A DNA stretch of 64,000 nucleotides from NCBI RefSeq assembly GCF_053078305.1, contig NZ_CP166879.1; one strand, 5' to 3'. Below, in pieces: positions 17,792 through 63,645 of this stretch (position 1 is the stretch's first letter; the number at the start of each line of letters is the position of its first letter). The notes beneath the pieces were generated by a model. The model was not told the DNA's origin. It did not search any database and saw only the letters and a list, made by a program, of their open reading frames with translations. The translations under genes were made by a program, and so were the position numbers.

Positions 17792-17868
<77 letters not shown>

Positions 17869-17900
17869 TCACCGTACTGCTTTATTTCATCAAATTTGAT

Positions 17901-17977
<77 letters not shown>

Positions 17978-18010
17978 TCACCGTACTGCTTTACTTCATC
18001 AAATTTTAAT

Positions 18011-18087
<77 letters not shown>

Positions 18088-19481: not shown

Positions 19482-19579
19482 GCCGGATGCGGCGTGAACG
19501 CCTTATCCGGCCTACAAATCATGCAAATCCAAAATATTGCAGGAGTTATGTAGGCCTGATAAGCGTAGCGCATCAGGCA
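19482..19579. repeat. BIME / REP pair in the mltA-tcdA intergenic region
   Basis: GCCGGATGCGGCGTGAACGCCTTATCCGGCCTACA … TGTAGGCCTGATAAGCGTAGCGCATCAGGC, typical REP units in inverted orientation. Confidence 0.85.
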
Positions 19580-22571: not shown

Positions 22572-22776
22572 AAAAAAAAGCACCGCAATTAGGCGGTGCT
22601 ACATTAATCACTATGGACAGACAGGGTAAATGTACAGGAAGTGAAAAAAGGTAGCTTTGCTACCATGGTCTGAATCGCAGACCAATTGCAAACACAACAA
22701 CACAACATCACAACCGTAAGCCAAAAGTTCACCAGAACACGCATTCCGATAAAACTTTTCGTTCCGGCTCAGGAAG
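22572..22776 (-). ncRNA. gcvB: GcvB small regulatory RNA
   Basis: Minus strand reads ACTTCCTGAGCCGGAACGAAAAGTTTTATCGGAATGCGTGTTCTGGTGAAC…GTTGTGATGTTGTGTTGTTGTGTTTGCAATTGG… (GU-rich R1 region) and ends in a hairpin plus T-run; divergent from gcvA. Confidence 0.9.
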
Positions 22777-22905
22777 TGCCGCCACTATAGGTATTTGCTG
22801 GTAGAAGCTCAACGGACAATTTATAATGGCTCAGATTAAAAAAACTAATAGGTTACACACTGTGATCTAATTGTTAAATTCATTTAACATCAAAGTTTAA
22901 AAGCC

Positions 22906-28023: not shown

Positions 28024-28047
28024 GCCGGATAACATTGCTTATCCGGC
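28024..28047. repeat. REP-like palindrome in the fucI-fucK spacer
   Basis: GCCGGATAACATTGCTTATCCGGC, a perfect hairpin-forming palindrome. Confidence 0.6.
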
Positions 28048-31500: not shown

Positions 31501-31595
31501 ATGACCGTATTAATTGTTTGTGCCGAAAACGGTCATTCCGGGCTTGGAGGAATAGAAAAATGACCGTTTTGATAAATATTTTTAAGAGCGGTCAT
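31501..31595. promoter_or_regulatory. Paired inverted repeats in the divergent fucPIKUR / fucAO control region (candidate operator sites)
   Basis: ATGACCGT-20 nt-ACGGTCAT (31501..31536) and ATGACCG-22 nt-CGGTCAT (31560..31595) within the 546-bp intergenic region. Confidence 0.5.
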
Positions 31596-40948: not shown

Positions 40949-41317
40949 GTCGACAGGGAGTCAGACAACGAAGTGAACATCAGGATGATGACACTTCTGA
41001 AGGACACACCAGGATGGTGTTTCAGGGAAAGGCTTCTGGATGAAGCGAAGAGGATGACGCAGGACGCGTTAAAGGACACCTCCAGGATGGAGAATGAGAA
41101 CCGGTCAGGATGATCCGGTGGGTCAGGAAGGCCAGGGACACTTCAGGATGAAGTATCACATCGGGGTGGTGTGAGCAGGAAGCAATAGTTCAGGATGAAC
41201 GATTGGCCGCAAGGCCAGAGGAAAAGTTGTCAAGGATGAGCAGGGAGCAACAAAAGTAGCTGGAATGCTGCGAAACGAACCGGGAGCACTGTGAATACAG
41301 TGCTCCCTTTTTTTATT
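40949..41317 (+). ncRNA. csrB: CsrB regulatory RNA (CsrA-sequestering)
   Basis: Starts GTCGACAGGGAGTCAGACAACGAAGTGAACATCAGGATGATGACAC…; carries many CAGGATG / AGGA repeats and ends in a strong hairpin (GGGAGCACTGTGAATACAGTGCTCCC) plus T-run. Confidence 0.92.
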
Positions 41318-51822: not shown

Positions 51823-54057
51823 ATGGTTGCGGTAAGAAGTGCACATATCAATAAGGCTGGTGAATTTGATCCGGAAAAATGGATCGCAAGTCTGGGTATT
51901 ACCAGCCAGAAGTCGTGTGAGTGCTTAGCCGAAACCTGGGCGTATTGTCTGCAACAGACGCAGGGGCATCCGGATGCCAGTCTGTTATTGTGGCGTGGTG
52001 TTGAGATGGTGGAGATCCTCTCGACATTAAGTATGGACATTGACACGCTGCGGGCGGCGCTGCTTTTCCCTCTGGCGGATGCCAACGTAGTCAGCGAAGA
52101 TGTGCTGCGTGAGAGCGTCGGTAAGTCGGTCGTTAACCTTATTCACGGCGTGCGTGATATGGCGGCGATCCGCCAGCTGAAAGCGACGCACACTGATTCT
52201 GTTTCCTCCGAACAGGTCGATAACGTTCGCCGGATGTTATTGGCGATGGTCGATGATTTTCGCTGCGTGGTCATCAAACTGGCGGAGCGTATTGCTCATC
52301 TGCGTGAAGTAAAAGATGCGCCGGAAGATGAACGCGTACTGGCGGCAAAAGAGTGCACCAATATCTACGCGCCGTTGGCAAACCGTCTTGGGATTGGGCA
52401 ACTGAAATGGGAGCTGGAAGATTACTGCTTCCGTTATCTCCACCCGACCGAATACAAACGCATCGCAAAACTGTTGCATGAACGCCGTCTCGACCGCGAA
52501 CACTATATCGAAGAGTTTGTCGGTCATCTGCGCGCTGAGATGAAAGCTGAAGGCGTTAAAGCTGAAGTGTATGGTCGTCCGAAACACATCTACAGCATCT
52601 GGCGCAAAATGCAGAAAAAGAACCTCGCCTTCGATGAGCTGTTTGATGTGCGTGCGGTACGTATTGTCGCCGAGCGTTTACAGGATTGTTATGCCGCACT
52701 GGGGATAGTGCACACTCACTATCGCCACCTGCCGGATGAGTTTGACGATTACGTCGCTAACCCGAAACCAAACGGTTATCAGTCTATTCATACCGTGGTT
52801 CTGGGGCCGGGTGGAAAAACCGTTGAGATCCAAATCCGCACCAAACAGATGCATGAAGATGCAGAGTTGGGTGTTGCTGCGCACTGGAAATATAAAGAGG
52901 GCGCGGCTGCTGGCGGCGCACGTTCGGGACATGAAGACCGGATTGCCTGGCTGCGCAAACTGATTGCGTGGCAGGAAGAGATGGCTGATTCCGGCGAAAT
53001 GCTCGACGAAGTACGCAGCCAGGTGTTTGACGACCGGGTGTATGTCTTTACGCCGAAAGGTGATGTCGTTGATTTACCTGCGGGATCAACGCCGCTGGAC
53101 TTCGCTTACCACATCCACAGTGATGTCGGACACCGCTGTATCGGGGCAAAAATTGGCGGGCGCATTGTGCCGTTCACCTACCAGCTGCAAATGGGCGACC
53201 AGATTGAAATTATCACCCAGAAACAGCCGAACCCCAGCCGTGACTGGTTAAACCCAAACCTCGGTTACGTCACAACCAGCCGTGGGCGTTCGAAAATTCA
53301 CGCCTGGTTCCGTAAACAGGACCGTGACAAAAACATTCTGGCTGGGCGGCAAATCCTTGACGACGAGCTGGAACATCTGGGGATCAGCCTGAAAGAAGCA
53401 GAAAAACATCTGCTGCCGCGTTACAACTTCAATGATGTCGACGAGTTGCTGGCGGCGATTGGTGGAGGGGATATCCGTCTCAATCAGATGGTGAACTTCC
53501 TGCAATCGCAATTTAATAAGCCGAGTGCCGAAGAGCAGGACGCCGCCGCGCTGAAGCAACTTCAGCAAAAAAGCTACACGCCGCAAAACCGCAGTAAAGA
53601 TAACGGTCGTGTGGTGGTTGAAGGTGTCGGTAACCTGATGCACCACATCGCGCGCTGCTGCCAGCCGATTCCTGGAGATGAGATTGTCGGCTTCATTACC
53701 CAGGGACGCGGTATTTCAGTACACCGCGCCGATTGCGAACAACTGGCGGAACTGCGCTCCCATGCGCCAGAACGCATTGTTGACGCGGTATGGGGCGAGA
53801 GCTACTCCGCCGGATATTCGCTGGTGGTCCGCGTGGTGGCTAATGATCGTAGTGGGTTGTTACGTGATATCACGACCATTCTCGCCAACGAAAAGGTGAA
53901 CGTACTTGGCGTTGCCAGCCGTAGCGACACCAAACAGCAACTGGCGACCATCGACATGACCATTGAGATTTACAACCTGCAGGTGCTGGGTCGCGTGCTG
54001 GGTAAACTCAACCAGGTGCCGGATGTTATCGACGCGCGTCGGTTGCACGGGAGTTAG
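51823..54057 (+). CDS. relA: GTP pyrophosphokinase ((p)ppGpp synthetase I)
   Basis: 744-aa ORF recognised as RelA. Confidence 0.95.
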   Translation: MVAVRSAHINKAGEFDPEKWIASLGITSQKSCECLAETWAYCLQQTQGHPDASLLLWRGVEMVEILSTLSMDIDTLRAALLFPLADANVVSEDVLRESVGKSVVNLIHGVRDMAAIRQLKATHTDSVSSEQVDNVRRMLLAMVDDFRCVVIKLAERIAHLREVKDAPEDERVLAAKECTNIYAPLANRLGIGQLKWELEDYCFRYLHPTEYKRIAKLLHERRLDREHYIEEFVGHLRAEMKAEGVKAEVYGRPKHIYSIWRKMQKKNLAFDELFDVRAVRIVAERLQDCYAALGIVHTHYRHLPDEFDDYVANPKPNGYQSIHTVVLGPGGKTVEIQIRTKQMHEDAELGVAAHWKYKEGAAAGGARSGHEDRIAWLRKLIAWQEEMADSGEMLDEVRSQVFDDRVYVFTPKGDVVDLPAGSTPLDFAYHIHSDVGHRCIGAKIGGRIVPFTYQLQMGDQIEIITQKQPNPSRDWLNPNLGYVTTSRGRSKIHAWFRKQDRDKNILAGRQILDDELEHLGISLKEAEKHLLPRYNFNDVDELLAAIGGGDIRLNQMVNFLQSQFNKPSAEEQDAAALKQLQQKSYTPQNRSKDNGRVVVEGVGNLMHHIARCCQPIPGDEIVGFITQGRGISVHRADCEQLAELRSHAPERIVDAVWGESYSAGYSLVVRVVANDRSGLLRDITTILANEKVNVLGVASRSDTKQQLATIDMTIEIYNLQVLGRVLGKLNQVPDVIDARRLHGS

Positions 54058-54073
54058 GCAGAAATTTGCTCGT

Positions 54074-54108
54074 ATCTACAATGTAGATTGATATATACTG
54101 TATCTACA
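54074..54108 (+). promoter_or_regulatory. mazEF promoter region with alternating palindrome
   Basis: ATCTACAATGTAGATTGATATATACTGTATCTACA: overlapping palindromic arms ATCTACA/TGTAGAT just upstream of mazE. Confidence 0.7.
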
Positions 54109-54134
54109 TATGATAGCGGTTTGAGGAAAGGGTT

Positions 54135-54383
54135 ATGATCCACAGTAGCGTAAAGCGTTGGGGAAATTCACCGGCGGTGCGGATCCCGGCTACGTTAATG
54201 CAGGCGCTCAATCTGAATATTGATGATGAAGTGAAGATTGACCTGGTGGATGGCAAATTAATTATTGAGCCAGTGCGTAAAGAGCCCGTATTTACGCTTG
54301 CTGAACTGGTCAACGACATCACGCCGGAAAACCTCCACGAGAATATCGACTGGGGAGAGCCGAAAGATAAGGAAGTCTGGTAA
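54135..54383 (+). CDS. mazE: Antitoxin MazE
   Basis: 82-aa [30 protein letters not shown]…. Confidence 0.95.
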
Positions 54384-54718
54384 TGGTAAGCCGATACGTA
54401 CCCGATATGGGCGATCTGATTTGGGTTGATTTTGACCCGACAAAAGGTAGCGAGCAAGCCGGACATCGTCCGGCTGTTGTCCTGAGTCCGTTCATGTACA
54501 ACAACAAAACAGGTATGTGTCTGTGTGTTCCTTGTACAACGCAATCAAAAGGATATCCGTTCGAAGTTGTTTTATCCGGTCAGGAACGTGATGGCGTAGC
54601 GTTAGCTGATCAGGTAAAAAGTATCGCCTGGCGGGCAAGAGGAGCAACGAAGAAAGGAACGGTTGCCCCAGAGGAATTACAACTCATTAAAGCCAAAATT
54701 AACGTACTGATTGGGTAG
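54383..54718 (+). CDS. mazF: Toxin MazF (ACA-specific endoribonuclease)
   Basis: 111-aa ORF overlapping the mazE stop, [53 protein letters not shown]…. Confidence 0.95.
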   Translation: MVSRYVPDMGDLIWVDFDPTKGSEQAGHRPAVVLSPFMYNNKTGMCLCVPCTTQSKGYPFEVVLSGQERDGVALADQVKSIAWRARGATKKGTVAPEELQLIKAKINVLIG

Positions 54719-54789
54719 GTGTTACTAACTCACTTCTATTCTGGTCACAGGTTTCCACCTGACAGACCCGCAATTTTCAGGACATTCTA

Positions 54790-55581
54790 ATGAATCAAAT
54801 CGACCGTTTGCTCACTATTATGCAGCGCCTGCGCGACCCGGAAAACGGCTGCCCGTGGGATAAAGAGCAGACATTTTCTTCTATTGCGCCTTACACCCTT
54901 GAAGAAACCTACGAGGTGCTGGACGCTATTGCCCGCGAAGACTTTGACGATCTGCGCGGTGAACTCGGCGATCTGCTGTTCCAGGTGGTGTTTTACGCAC
55001 AAATGGCTCAGGAAGAAGGGCGCTTTGACTTTAATGATATTTGCGCTGCGATTAGCGATAAATTAGAGCGTCGCCATCCGCATGTTTTTGCTGACAGTTC
55101 TGCCGAAAACAGTAGTGAAGTGCTTGCCCGTTGGGAGCAAATCAAAACCGAAGAGCGCGCGCAGAAAGCGCAGCATTCGGCGCTGGACGATATTCCTCGT
55201 AGTTTACCGGCTTTAATGCGTGCGCAAAAAATCCAGAAACGTTGCGCCAACGTTGGCTTCGATTGGACGACGCTTGGTCCGGTAGTCGATAAAGTCTACG
55301 AAGAGATCGACGAGGTGATGTACGAGGCACGGCAGGCTGTTATCGACCAGGCTAAACTGGAGGAGGAAATGGGTGACCTGCTGTTTGCCACGGTCAATCT
55401 GGCTCGTCATTTAGGGACAAAAGCGGAAATCGCATTGCAAAAAGCGAACGAAAAATTCGAGCGTCGTTTTCGCGAAGTGGAGCGTATTGTTGCCGCGCGT
55501 GGATTGGAAATGACAGGTGTTGACCTCGAAACAATGGAAGAAGTCTGGCAACAGGTAAAACGGCAGGAAATTGATCTCTAA
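54790..55581 (+). CDS. mazG: Nucleoside triphosphate pyrophosphohydrolase MazG
   Basis: 263-aa ORF downstream of mazF. Confidence 0.9.
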   Translation: MNQIDRLLTIMQRLRDPENGCPWDKEQTFSSIAPYTLEETYEVLDAIAREDFDDLRGELGDLLFQVVFYAQMAQEEGRFDFNDICAAISDKLERRHPHVFADSSAENSSEVLARWEQIKTEERAQKAQHSALDDIPRSLPALMRAQKIQKRCANVGFDWTTLGPVVDKVYEEIDEVMYEARQAVIDQAKLEEEMGDLLFATVNLARHLGTKAEIALQKANEKFERRFREVERIVAARGLEMTGVDLETMEEVWQQVKRQEIDL

Positions 55582-58891: not shown

Positions 58892-59785
58892 TTACCAGCG
58901 ACCGGACGCGCCGCCACCGCCAGAAGAACCGCCCCCGCCGCTAAATCCGCCGCCACTTGAGCCTCCACCGGAAGAGGATGAAGAAGAACTTTTTCTTGAA
59001 GCTCTTTCTTTACTGAGTTTTTTGTATTTGGCGCGTAGCTTTTTATTGACGATAAGCCAAAAAATAACCAGTGGTACGCTCGCAAAAGGCGTTAACATAC
59101 CGCAGGCAACGATTAAATTGGTCCATGGTCCTGGCTCGGCAACATAGAGGAATACCATCCCGTAAATGGCGCCAGTGAGAGTGATCCAGGGTAAATTCGA
59201 CGGATCGGTAAAAACAATAAAATATGAAAGTACCGCCAGCAATATAATTACAGCAAGCGATAATGGAATAGGGGGATTGATACTGTAATAATCCCCCTTG
59301 TCTTCCGATAATTCACCATTCAACAGAAGCGCGCCGATATTTTCGCTTGCCAGTGTTAATCCACCCATCAGGTCATCACTTTTGAAGGCAGGGATCAATA
59401 TATCCCTGATAATCTTCGCCGCTTGCAGGTCGGTAACCACCCCTTCCAGCCCGTAGCCAACCTCAATACGAACAGCATGATCCTCCCAGGCAACCAGAAG
59501 TAAAATACCATCGTTTCTCTGCTTATCTCCCAGTTTCCAGCTATCAAAAACGCGTGTTGCATATTGTTCAATGGAATCGTCTCCGGTGGACGGCACTACT
59601 AATACAGCGACCTGCGCCCGTGTTTTATGTGTAATATCCTGCAGTTGCTGTGTCAGTGATTGTTGTTCAGAAGTGCTTAACGTACCAGTAATATCGGTCA
59701 CCTGTTGGCGCAGCTCCGGCACAGCAATTTGCTGGGCAAGCCCAGGAAGGCACCACAAAGTGAATAGAATAAAGATTAAGCGCAT
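58892..59785 (-). CDS. TPM-domain membrane protein (YgcG-like), eno-proximal paralogue
   Basis: Signal peptide MRLIFILFTLWCLPGLAQQ, then TPM-like region (…ITGTLSTSEQQSLTQQLQ…AQVAVLVVPSTG…), hydrophobic segments, and C-terminal Gly/Ser tail ending SGRW; ATG at 59785 preferred over the TTG at 59797. Confidence 0.8.
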   Translation of the reverse strand: MRLIFILFTLWCLPGLAQQIAVPELRQQVTDITGTLSTSEQQSLTQQLQDITHKTRAQVAVLVVPSTGDDSIEQYATRVFDSWKLGDKQRNDGILLLVAWEDHAVRIEVGYGLEGVVTDLQAAKIIRDILIPAFKSDDLMGGLTLASENIGALLLNGELSEDKGDYYSINPPIPLSLAVIILLAVLSYFIVFTDPSNLPWITLTGAIYGMVFLYVAEPGPWTNLIVACGMLTPFASVPLVIFWLIVNKKLRAKYKKLSKERASRKSSSSSSSGGGSSGGGFSGGGGSSGGGGASGRW

Positions 59786-59790
59786 TACGA

Positions 59791-60939
59791 TCACCAACGG
59801 CCGGATGAACCGCCGCCTCCTGAAGAACCGCCACCACCGCGGAAAGAATTTCTCGACGAAGAGCGAGAATGAGCATTACGATTCCCCGTTTTCCTGTTGC
59901 TTTTTTCTCCTGACCCCAGCTTAAGATTGCCAGTAAATTTGGCCACAATGATCAGCAGAACGATGCCAGCAATGGTTATTGGGCCGATAAAATGATCAAT
60001 TAACCCAATAATTGTTGAGATGAATGCAATATCTTTATTACTGGCGAACACCAGGCACCATCCCACAATAATTATCAGCATCACGACAAACAATGAATTT
60101 CGTCCTGATTCACGAACCTGCGGAGTCTTCTTTTGTTTTTTCACTTTAGCGTTTTTATTTTTTGGGGCCAGCATCATAGGAAATACGCGGCACAAATTAA
60201 AAACTACCGCGAGACGCTGCTTGCAGGTTGTTGCTAACAATAAACTAAAACAAACGACCGATACCCGCCGAATGATGACATCGTCCTGAAAGGAGAAAAA
60301 CCAGACCATAGGGGTAATCATCGATATCATCCATATGCCACGCCGTGGGCGGCTGGCAAATCGCCAGAGGACAACGATGGCAACGATCATCAGCAGTGTC
60401 CAGGCAAGACATGGCAGCGAACGTTGCGGATTAGCAAACAGATGATTGGCTAAAGCATCCAAAGGGCTAAGGTTCGCTTTGATATGGGTAAACTGTGCGA
60501 TGCTTTCAATTCCGCCCGTTAATCCAGCAAAGAGATTGTTTTTTTCGAATTCTGGCTGCATATGGTAACGAACAATTTGCGCAGCTTGTTCCGGCGGCAA
60601 CATCTCTTCCAGTCCATGTCCAATCTTCATTGACGCCAGCCCTTCCGGCCATACGACGAGAATTAAGATACCTTCGCCATATCGCTTCTCTCCAACGGGT
60701 TTCCAGTGATATACCCCGTATCTCTGCGAGGCTGCAAGTTTAATGTTTTTGCCCCCTGTGGTCGGCGTAACCAACACGGCCACCTGGAAGTGGTTTTGCT
60801 GCTCGAGAGTCTGTAATTGTTGAGTTAAAGCAGTTTGTTCTTCTGTCGTTAATGTCCCGGTTAAGTCATTCACTGAAGGCAATCGTTCAGCGAATACCTG
60901 AAAACTGCATAGCATCAGAAGTAAGAGAAAAATACGCAT
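59791..60939 (-). CDS. TPM-domain membrane protein, divergent and longer middle paralogue
   Basis: Signal peptide, TPM-like N-terminal region (SVNDLTGTLTTEEQTALTQQLQ…), several hydrophobic helices, a Lys-rich segment (KNKNAKVKKQKK) and a Gly/Ser tail ending SGRW. Confidence 0.75.
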   Translation of the reverse strand: MRIFLLLLMLCSFQVFAERLPSVNDLTGTLTTEEQTALTQQLQTLEQQNHFQVAVLVTPTTGGKNIKLAASQRYGVYHWKPVGEKRYGEGILILVVWPEGLASMKIGHGLEEMLPPEQAAQIVRYHMQPEFEKNNLFAGLTGGIESIAQFTHIKANLSPLDALANHLFANPQRSLPCLAWTLLMIVAIVVLWRFASRPRRGIWMISMITPMVWFFSFQDDVIIRRVSVVCFSLLLATTCKQRLAVVFNLCRVFPMMLAPKNKNAKVKKQKKTPQVRESGRNSLFVVMLIIIVGWCLVFASNKDIAFISTIIGLIDHFIGPITIAGIVLLIIVAKFTGNLKLGSGEKSNRKTGNRNAHSRSSSRNSFRGGGGSSGGGGSSGRW

Positions 60940-60956
60940 ATCAATTCCTTTTGTTA

Positions 60957-61847
60957 CTAGCGCCCGGAAGCGCCACCGCCACCAGATGAACCGCCACCAC
61001 CGCTGAAATTGTCATTGTTGAATGAAGAGGATGACGATGATGAATAGTGGGAGGAAGAATTGCTTCTTGTATGGCGTGATGGCTGGTTGACATCACGCAT
61101 CAAATCCCGAACTTTTTTGCCGAAGGGAGTAACAGCGATGGCGACAGCCAGGAACGGTGTGGCGAAGCAGAGTAATGTTGCGAGTACTCCCCAGCTTCCG
61201 CTGAAGCCTGCTATAGGTAAAACAAAGGCCAGTACAATAGCTGCGAAGCAAATTACTCCCAGCGTTTTGATATATCCTCTGGCAGAAATAAACGTCAGTA
61301 CTATCGCCCAGACTAACAATGCCCACCAACCGCTAAAGGGCAAAGGGTGATCGGTCGGTGTAATCGTTGCTAAATTATTCCCCGTCAGACGACTTTCAAG
61401 ATCGCTGATCCCCTTTTGTAAACCGACAGCAAGGTCGCCTTTTTTAAATGCAGGAATAATATTGTTGCGAATAATTTTCCCGGACTGCGCATCCGTAATA
61501 ATACCTTCCAGTCCGTAACCGATTTCAATACGCACGGTATGATCCTGCCAGGCGACTAACAGTAGAACGCCATTATCGCGGTCTTTATCACCCGGTTTCC
61601 AGCTATCGAATACCCGCGTTGCGTACTGCTCGATGGTTTCATCGCCTGTTGTATCAACCACTAACACGACCAACTGTGCGTGGTTTTTTTGCGTCAGGGC
61701 TTTAATCTGGTTGGTCAGGGTGTTTACTTCGCTGTTTGTTAATGTGCCGGTTAAGTCATTCACATACTTGGGGGATTCAGGTACTGGAATTTGTGTGGCA
61801 AACACAGATGAACAGAAGAAAGCCATAAGGAAGATAAAATTTCGCAT
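60957..61847 (-). CDS. TPM-domain membrane protein (YgcG-like), LemA-proximal paralogue
   Basis: From the ATG at 61847 (MRNFIFLMAFFCSSVFA signal peptide), TPM-like region closely similar to the eno-proximal paralogue, hydrophobic segments and a Ser-rich/Gly-rich tail. Confidence 0.8.
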   Translation of the reverse strand: MRNFIFLMAFFCSSVFATQIPVPESPKYVNDLTGTLTNSEVNTLTNQIKALTQKNHAQLVVLVVDTTGDETIEQYATRVFDSWKPGDKDRDNGVLLLVAWQDHTVRIEIGYGLEGIITDAQSGKIIRNNIIPAFKKGDLAVGLQKGISDLESRLTGNNLATITPTDHPLPFSGWWALLVWAIVLTFISARGYIKTLGVICFAAIVLAFVLPIAGFSGSWGVLATLLCFATPFLAVAIAVTPFGKKVRDLMRDVNQPSRHTRSNSSSHYSSSSSSSFNNDNFSGGGGSSGGGGASGR

Positions 61848-61860
61848 AGAACTTCCCCGC

Positions 61861-62463
61861 TTAATGAGCATTAGCATTCTGGCTAAAATCTATTGTTGGG
61901 GCTTTACTTACTGCGGTGACATCATCCGGCAAATAATTTTTCTTTGGTGTGTAATCCATGACCTTTGCGGTTAATACAGCGGGGAATTTGCGGATAGTGA
62001 CATTATATTGTTCAATGGCTTTAATATATCTTCCTCGCGCAACGGCAATTCTATTTTCACTTCCTTCGAGCTGTACCATTAAGTTTTGATAGAGCTCTTG
62101 AGCCTTTAACTCAGGGTAACGCTCACTAATTATCGTTAACTGACCGAGAGTGCGAGTCACCTGCGCCTGGGCCTGTTGCCAGGCTTGTAATTTTTGTGCA
62201 TCTCCCGGAGCTTGCTGAAGATCGCTGCTGGCGCGATTAGCCTGGCTACGAGCCAATGTTACGGCTTCCAAAACGTCTTTTTCATGGCTGGAATAACCTT
62301 TAATACTGGCGACAAGATTAGGAATAAGATCGGCGCGACGTTGATATTGATTCAATACCTCAGACCAGGAGGCGTTAACCTGCTCATCATAGGTTTGAAT
62401 ATCGTTATATCCACAGCCTGATAAATTGAAAATAAATATAATTACGATGAATATTCTGAGCAT
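61861..62463 (-). CDS. LemA-family lipoprotein
   Basis: 200-aa ORF with lipobox (…IFNLSGC) and LemA-like sequence (…WSEVLNQYQRRADLIPNLV…); first gene of a four-gene minus-strand cluster. Confidence 0.8.
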   Translation of the reverse strand: MLRIFIVIIFIFNLSGCGYNDIQTYDEQVNASWSEVLNQYQRRADLIPNLVASIKGYSSHEKDVLEAVTLARSQANRASSDLQQAPGDAQKLQAWQQAQAQVTRTLGQLTIISERYPELKAQELYQNLMVQLEGSENRIAVARGRYIKAIEQYNVTIRKFPAVLTAKVMDYTPKKNYLPDDVTAVSKAPTIDFSQNANAH

Positions 62464-63307: not shown

Positions 63308-63645
63308 TTAAACATTTATAAGCGTTATAAATGGGTGGAACCTGTAAAGACTTCTACTCATTTATATTCTTTGTCGTCTCTGAAAAACCTCCATTTTGCC
63401 CATCCTGAACTAATCATTATCATTCTCTACAAATTCTGTGGCGTTAATTTTTCACTGGAGTGAAAATTATTGCGGTAAAGTTTGGTAGATTTTAGTTTGT
63501 ATAGAGTTATTTTAAATATTTACCTTTTTAATCAATGGGTTAAGTGCTCTTTAACATAATGGATGTGTTGTTTGTGTGATACTGTAAAGTTGGTAGATTG
63601 TGACTGGCTTAAAAAATCATTAATTAATAATAGGTTATGTTTAGA
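63308..63645 (+). promoter_or_regulatory. AT-rich CRISPR leader
   Basis: About 340 bp of AT-rich non-coding sequence immediately upstream of the first repeat; orientation matches the crRNA-sense repeat. Confidence 0.7.

Follow-up and report, generated by a model that had tools for sequence, protein, structure and literature searches.

A K-12-like mazEF toxin-antitoxin module between relA and mazG on an Escherichia coli chromosome

Two modules of the MazF/PemK family are known from the chromosome of Escherichia coli, mazEF and chpBS, and these occupy different chromosomal loci. The former has been described as part of a relA-mazEFG operon (PMC7167474). Its toxin, MazF, cleaves RNA at ACA, its own message included, and in K-12 this message offers 2 ACA sites in mazE and 9 in mazF (PMC5888573). 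Transcription starts from promoters P2 and P3, which are situated 13 nt apart upstream of mazE with a palindrome inside them, and which are repressed by MazE, more strongly by the MazE-MazF complex, and activated through a FIS site further upstream (PMC4803016). Oligonucleotides representing the full operator, termed 'cab', and its site 'a' were published by Zorzini et al. 2015, who give the sequence and definition of that site (PMC4333400), and site 'a' has been ranked as the highest-affinity MazE site (PMC4803016). A further regulator is the antisense RNA aMEF, about 400 nt long and seen only in an RNase III mutant, which originates from a non-canonical promoter inside mazF and is needed for the monocistronic mazE transcript as well as for normal levels of MazE and MazF (PMC8749433). 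What the module does for its host is contested, with stress-induced stasis, programmed death and specialised ribosomes all having been put forward (PMC7167474).

Here we analyse a copy of this module in a window of 64,000 nt (the whole stretch of DNA under study, from contig NZ_CP166879.1). A first-pass annotation had listed the locus as known biology, and this assessment stands, with both proteins and the operator identical to those of K-12. We consider it about 97% probable that the locus is the chromosomal type II toxin-antitoxin (TA) module mazEF (chpA) of E. coli, intact and with a predicted protein pair that is the same as in K-12. It is thus the textbook module, already known, and nothing contradicts the identification.

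Gene content and identity of the module

The module consists of two genes on the same strand, with the antitoxin gene mazE directly 5' of the toxin gene mazF and tightly coupled to it. Its features are as follows, the two ribosome-binding sites having been read from the sequence:

54123-54127, + strand: Shine-Dalgarno sequence of mazE, GAGGA, 7 nt before the ATG
54135-54383, + strand: mazE, an 82-aa ORF for the labile antitoxin and autorepressor, with an N-terminal AbrB-type DNA-binding domain and a disordered C-terminal MazF-binding tail
54370-54373, + strand: ribosome-binding site of mazF, AGGA, within the 3' end of mazE and 9 nt before the ATG
54383-54718, + strand: mazF, a 111-aa ORF for a predicted ACA-specific endoribonuclease toxin
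54460, 54472, 54490 and 54661: synonymous differences of mazF from K-12

The genes overlap by a single base, as the first-pass annotation had recorded: the mazE stop codon TAA (54381-54383) shares its last base with the mazF start codon ATG (54383-54385), giving TAATG at 54381-54385 within a junction that reads GTCTGGTAATGGTAAGCC. The position of the mazF ribosome-binding site inside the end of mazE suggests that translation of the two genes may be coupled.

Alignment to K-12 mazEF had been named as the way to check the assignment, and the MG1655 locus served as reference for a gene-by-gene comparison. At the DNA level, mazE is 100% identical to b2783 (0 of 249 nt differ), and no amino acid differs between MazE and its MG1655 counterpart. 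The mazF gene differs from b2782 at 4 nt, all synonymous, with none of the 111 residues of MazF changed, and the spacer upstream of mazE differs at 1 of its 77 positions. One of the mazF changes converts the T93 codon from ACA to ACG at 54661, and mazF therefore has 8 ACA sites rather than the 9 of K-12, the count in mazE being 2 in both.

Profile and structure comparisons agree with the alignment. Pfam assigns MazE to PF04014 (MazE_antitoxin; 52.9 bits against a cut-off of 24.7, E = 3.5e-14) and MazF to PF02452 (PemK_toxin; 84.8 bits against a cut-off of 23.1, E = 5.9e-24), and the NCBIfam equivalog models cover both proteins over their full lengths, NF007312 matching MazE residues 1-82 at 196.2 bits (cut-off 113) and NF007386 matching MazF residues 1-111 at 227.4 bits (cut-off 120). 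Divergence towards another TA family would have spoken against the assignment and was looked for, but none was seen: the paralogous models miss their cut-offs by a wide margin, ChpS at 35 bits and ChpB at 55, and the MazE and MazF equivalogs exceed theirs. Among solved structures, 1MVF, 1UB4 chain C and 2MRN/2MRU match MazE over its full length, as do 3NFC, 5CK9/5CR2 and 1UB4 for MazF, all with identical or almost identical sequences. The MazF translation has all three of the residues E24, R29 and T52, and from the structural literature on MazF we take R29 and T52 to be needed for RNA cleavage. Replacement of the first of these residues (E24A) yields an inactive MazF (PMC5888573).

Operator, promoters and antisense RNA

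The sequences that control mazEF in K-12 have counterparts between relA and mazF:

54055-54082, + strand: sigma-70-like promoter match TAGGCA-16-TACAAT from a consensus scan (9/12 positions), overlapping the operator
54069-54118, no strand: mazEF operator 'cab', 50 nt, with three MazE-dimer sites (c, a and b), predicted by sequence match
54088-54101, no strand: operator site 'a' (TTGATATATACTGT), with an ATATAT core
54024-54423, - strand: aMEF (ameF, b4844), an antisense RNA of about 400 nt, predicted by coordinate transfer from MG1655

The operator agrees at every position with the first 50 nt of the published oligonucleotide and is identical to that of K-12, and the sequence of site 'a' has its only exact match in the window here. 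The alternating palindrome that had been placed at 54074-54108 was located correctly to within 1 base, its right arm ending at 54109. The repeat finder returned two arm pairs, ATCTACA (54074-54080) with TGTAGAT (54082-54088), 1 nt apart, and ATGTAGAT (54081-54088) with ATCTACAT (54102-54109), 13 nt apart, along with a direct repeat, GTATCTACA, at 54072-54080 and 54100-54108. The middle arm can pair with either the upstream or the downstream arm, hence the term 'alternating palindrome'. When the 77-nt spacer was shuffled by mononucleotides, a two-sided 7-mer arrangement of this kind appeared in 5 of 20,000 shuffles, and only five other places elsewhere in the 64-kb window have one. Such geometries (a 7-mer with its reverse complement within 40 nt on both sides) lie at 28042, 31529-31560, 63115 and 63326-63327, and the one at 31529-31560 falls, by K-12 coordinates, in the divergent fucAO / fucPIK control region.

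The promoter match at 54055-54082 is a candidate for the published mazEF promoter P2 or P3; the hits of the promoter and terminator scans are weak consensus matches, too weak to position P2 and P3.

The first-pass annotation did not include aMEF, and a description of the locus should gain this annotated antisense RNA. Since there are no indels relative to MG1655 in this part of the window, the MG1655 annotation of aMEF (2911051-2911450) maps to 54024-54423, a span opposite the whole of mazE and of the operator that also reaches into mazF, over its 5' end, and into relA, over its final 34 nt. Three of the synonymous changes in mazF (54460, 54472 and 54490) precede the transferred start of aMEF by 37, 49 and 67 nt and are within the 75-bp aMEF promoter fragment of the published work (PMC8749433). 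Conceivably, the smaller number of ACA sites and the changes upstream of aMEF together give mazEF an autoregulatory set point different from that in K-12, and this could come about, for instance, through altered strength of the aMEF promoter or altered decay of the mazF mRNA. We regard such a shift as a long shot; if it were true, it would amount to lineage-specific tuning of a textbook TA module. A minus-strand ORF of 146 aa at 54104-54544, which starts upstream of the aMEF start, was discarded as a mechanical ORF antisense to mazEF.

Genomic setting and distribution

The module is flanked on both sides by genes of the same strand:

51823-54057, + strand: relA, GTP pyrophosphokinase, 744 aa, the upstream gene of the relA-mazEFG unit
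54790-55581, + strand: mazG, nucleoside triphosphate pyrophosphohydrolase, 263 aa, the downstream gene of the unit

On this one strand, the order is relA, operator/promoter, mazE, mazF and mazG, with spacers of 77 nt between relA and mazE and 71 nt between mazF and mazG, and a consensus scan of the + strand found no terminator-like site between relA and mazG. The module had been said to follow relA, which it does (relA ends at 54057 and mazE starts at 54135), and mazG starts at 54790; its placement inside the relA-mazG operon agrees with published work (PMC7167474) and with a + strand free of terminator-like sites. The Pfam domains of RelA are HD_4, RelA_SpoT, TGS and ACT, and its protein is identical to that of K-12 b2784 despite 49 synonymous nucleotide differences in the gene; MazG matches Pfam MazG at 134 bits, and mazG has 96.8% nucleotide identity to K-12 with 3 amino acid differences. 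The single difference in the relA-mazE spacer, at 54060, is just past the relA stop and outside the operator, and the mazF-mazG spacer is 1 nt longer than in K-12.

Divergence from K-12 is mosaic across this region, amounting to 3.4% in the first third of relA (51823-52567) and 6.7% in the first 210 nt of mazG (54790-54999), the latter including the MazG substitutions A30S and T31S, whereas barA, rlmD, pyrG and eno are low-divergence genes at 0.4-0.9%. The 5' allele of mazG shows 0% difference from strain 2018-05-2CC. This pattern across relA and mazG looks like ordinary recombination mosaicism. A recent sweep at mazEF, which would show as unusual conservation relative to its flanks, was considered and dropped because the signal was not convincing: mazE differs from K-12 at 0 of 249 positions, but mazF, at 1.2%, is close to the regional mean of about 1.4%, and the flanks are simply mosaic. 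The stretch 53900-54900 has an exact match in no complete RefSeq E. coli genome, the best reaching 99.8% (NZ_AP027877.1 and NZ_OZ197100.1). In the former of these, an insert of about 6 kb with sugar ABC-transporter and kinase genes replaces fucP, whereas the window aligns unbroken with K-12 across fucP.

That the module is chromosomal, as had been claimed, holds for each of the 5,428 places that matched in complete E. coli genomes, all of them annotated in RefSeq with the order relA, mazE, mazF, mazG. We searched 5,426 complete E. coli genomes with a cassette of 732 nt (54058-54789) and found it whole in 4,415 (about 81%), where RefSeq gives this same gene order, with 0 matches on plasmids, such that around 1,011 genomes (about 19%) are without it. 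These cassette-less genomes returned either about 41 nt adjoining mazG (hits of the H54/H55 kind) or, at megablast sensitivity, nothing. One example is TC_EC10 (NZ_CP144885.1; locus L002), in which a 95-nt spacer without the cassette separates relA from its direct neighbour mazG. The first 53 nt of this spacer (2448-2500 of L002) are unrelated to the mazEF region, as compared over 54058-54748 of the window, and contain predicted strong hairpins of the GCTGGATATGGCG/CGCCGTATCCAGC type, with a predicted energy of -33 kcal/mol for the whole spacer.

The absence of the cassette from about 19% of genomes argues against an essential link of mazEF to the function of relA or mazG. According to Fraikin et al. 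2020, UTI89-like strains keep an undisturbed bicistronic relA-mazG operon, and the insertion of mazEF between the two genes is probably independent of what its neighbours do (PMC7167474). The accessory status of mazEF in E. coli is therefore already in the literature, and the module is better seen as an accessory element inserted into the relA-mazG spacer than as a constant component of the operon.

The module had also been listed as the only TA system in the window, a claim that is borne out within the K-12 annotation, Rfam and Pfam checks. Positions 1-58973 form a single collinear alignment with MG1655 at 98.7% identity, whose content there runs from lgt/thyA through recBCD, the fuc and gud operons, barA, rlmD, relA, mazEFG and pyrG to eno, and the MG1655 annotation of this collinear stretch has no second TA system. 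The following segment, 58974-62428, is not K-12-like and encodes LemA and three TPM-domain proteins but no TA system; beyond it, similarity to K-12 resumes, at about 94%, over 62429 to about 63734, the queE region. At gathering thresholds, Rfam returned no type I antitoxin RNA in the window, its full list consisting of CsrB, GcvB, three tRNA-Met genes and ES036. As far as these checks reach, mazEF is the only TA system in the window, small unannotated type I loci being possible.

The Rfam hits are all expected in a K-12-like region: CsrB at 40958-41317 (+), GcvB at 22572-22777 (-), the tandem initiator tRNA-Met genes metZWV at 17795-18087 (-) and the ES036 (CssrF) sRNA at 19515-19557 (+). Downstream of eno, at 58892-62463 (-), the window leaves K-12 where ygcG/yqcG sit. 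A lemA gene at 61861-62463 (-) is followed there by three paralogous TPM-domain genes (60957-61877, 59791-60939 and 58892-59797), whose products have Gly/Ser-rich C-terminal tails ending in GGGSSGGGG(A/S)SGRW or GGGSSGGGGASGR. In AP027877, the closest complete genome, the LemA/TPM region is shorter and partly pseudogenised.

Proposed role and comparison with known systems

The mechanism outlined here follows published work on the identical K-12 sequences. In this scheme, mazE and mazF would be co-transcribed from P2/P3 in the relA-mazE spacer, with additional read-through from relA. With their N-terminal AbrB-type domains, MazE dimers would occupy sites c, a and b of the operator and repress transcription, an effect that MazF would strengthen at low toxin:antitoxin ratios and relieve at high ones, while in a MazF2-MazE2-MazF2 complex the disordered C-terminal tail of MazE would block the active site of the MazF dimer. 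Once MazE is degraded (by ClpAP and Lon) or is no longer synthesised, MazF would become free to cut single-stranded RNA at ACA, its own mRNA included, and translation and growth would stop, with aMEF presumably tuning the ratio of mazE to mazEF transcripts and the levels of both proteins. In particular, the ACA endoribonuclease activity of MazF, its neutralisation by MazE and the proteolysis of MazE would be shared with K-12, given 100% protein identity.

Other readings of the locus concern what it is and whether it works. It might be another member of the MazF/PemK superfamily (the chpBS/chpBIK paralogue or a plasmid pemIK/kis-kid system) mislabelled as mazEF: the NCBIfam models for ChpB and ChpS do match at 55.2 and 34.6 bits, and the PDB depositors named these same proteins 'PemK-like protein 1' and 'PemI-like protein 1'. 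The matches are weak and arise because the families are related: they compare with cut-offs of 129 and 101, whereas the equivalog models give 227 bits for MazF and 196 for MazE, and the proteins are those of K-12 MazE and MazF, encoded between relA and mazG at a place that is chromosomal in 5,428 of 5,428 matches. The NCBIfam scores and the K-12 identity rule out ChpBS or plasmid PemIK, and we consider mislabelling vanishingly improbable. The module might instead be decayed or silent in this strain, with an inactive toxin or a broken promoter or operator, as it is dispensable, missing from about 19% of complete E. coli genomes, and chromosomal TA modules often degenerate. Yet both full-length ORFs specify the K-12 proteins, and neither the operator nor the Shine-Dalgarno sequences nor the 1-nt overlap is disrupted. 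The sole differences are the 4 synonymous changes of mazF and the base at 54060, which is not part of the operator, and we consider decay extremely unlikely.

Views of the biological role are less settled, and stress-induced stasis, programmed death, abortive phage defence and a selfish cassette are all in dispute. One proposal makes mazEF a (p)ppGpp-controlled device for programmed cell death, integrated with the stringent response through relA and mazG, and not a selfish or defence cassette of independent origin. The module is co-oriented with both genes, separated from them by short spacers (77 nt and 71 nt) without a terminator-like site between, and the early literature proposed (p)ppGpp-dependent death through mazEF (summarised in PMC7167474 and PMC4803016). 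However, cassette-less genomes have relA directly beside mazG with a 95-nt spacer, and we consider this integrated role unlikely. Because about one-fifth of genomes do without mazEF, we favour an acquired addiction cassette over an integral part of the stringent response, i.e., a mobile cassette of the addiction type, integrated between relA and mazG, that would confer reversible growth arrest and possibly phage exclusion too. Beyond correct annotation, the importance of the locus is small, mazEF being among the best-characterised TA systems.

Of the described systems, mazE-mazF of K-12 MG1655 (b2783-b2782; chpAI-chpAK) is the closest, having the same mazE DNA, MazF protein and operator 'cab', the same 1-nt overlap, the same relA and mazG neighbours and the same 77-nt spacer length; it differs from the window at the 4 synonymous mazF sites and at base 54060, and its mazF-mazG spacer is 1 nt shorter. 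The second chromosomal MazF/PemK-family module of E. coli, chpBS (chpBI-chpBK), likewise pairs a PemK-type toxin with an AbrB-type antitoxin, but the proteins of the window score far below the equivalog cut-offs of ChpB (129) and ChpS (101). With pemIK of plasmid R100 and parD (kis-kid) of plasmid R1, the module shares the PF02452 toxin fold, a bicistronic layout in which the antitoxin gene comes first, and autoregulation through either the antitoxin or the complex (PMC7167474). These latter systems are plasmid-borne and act in post-segregational killing, whereas mazEF is chromosomal in every complete genome that has it.
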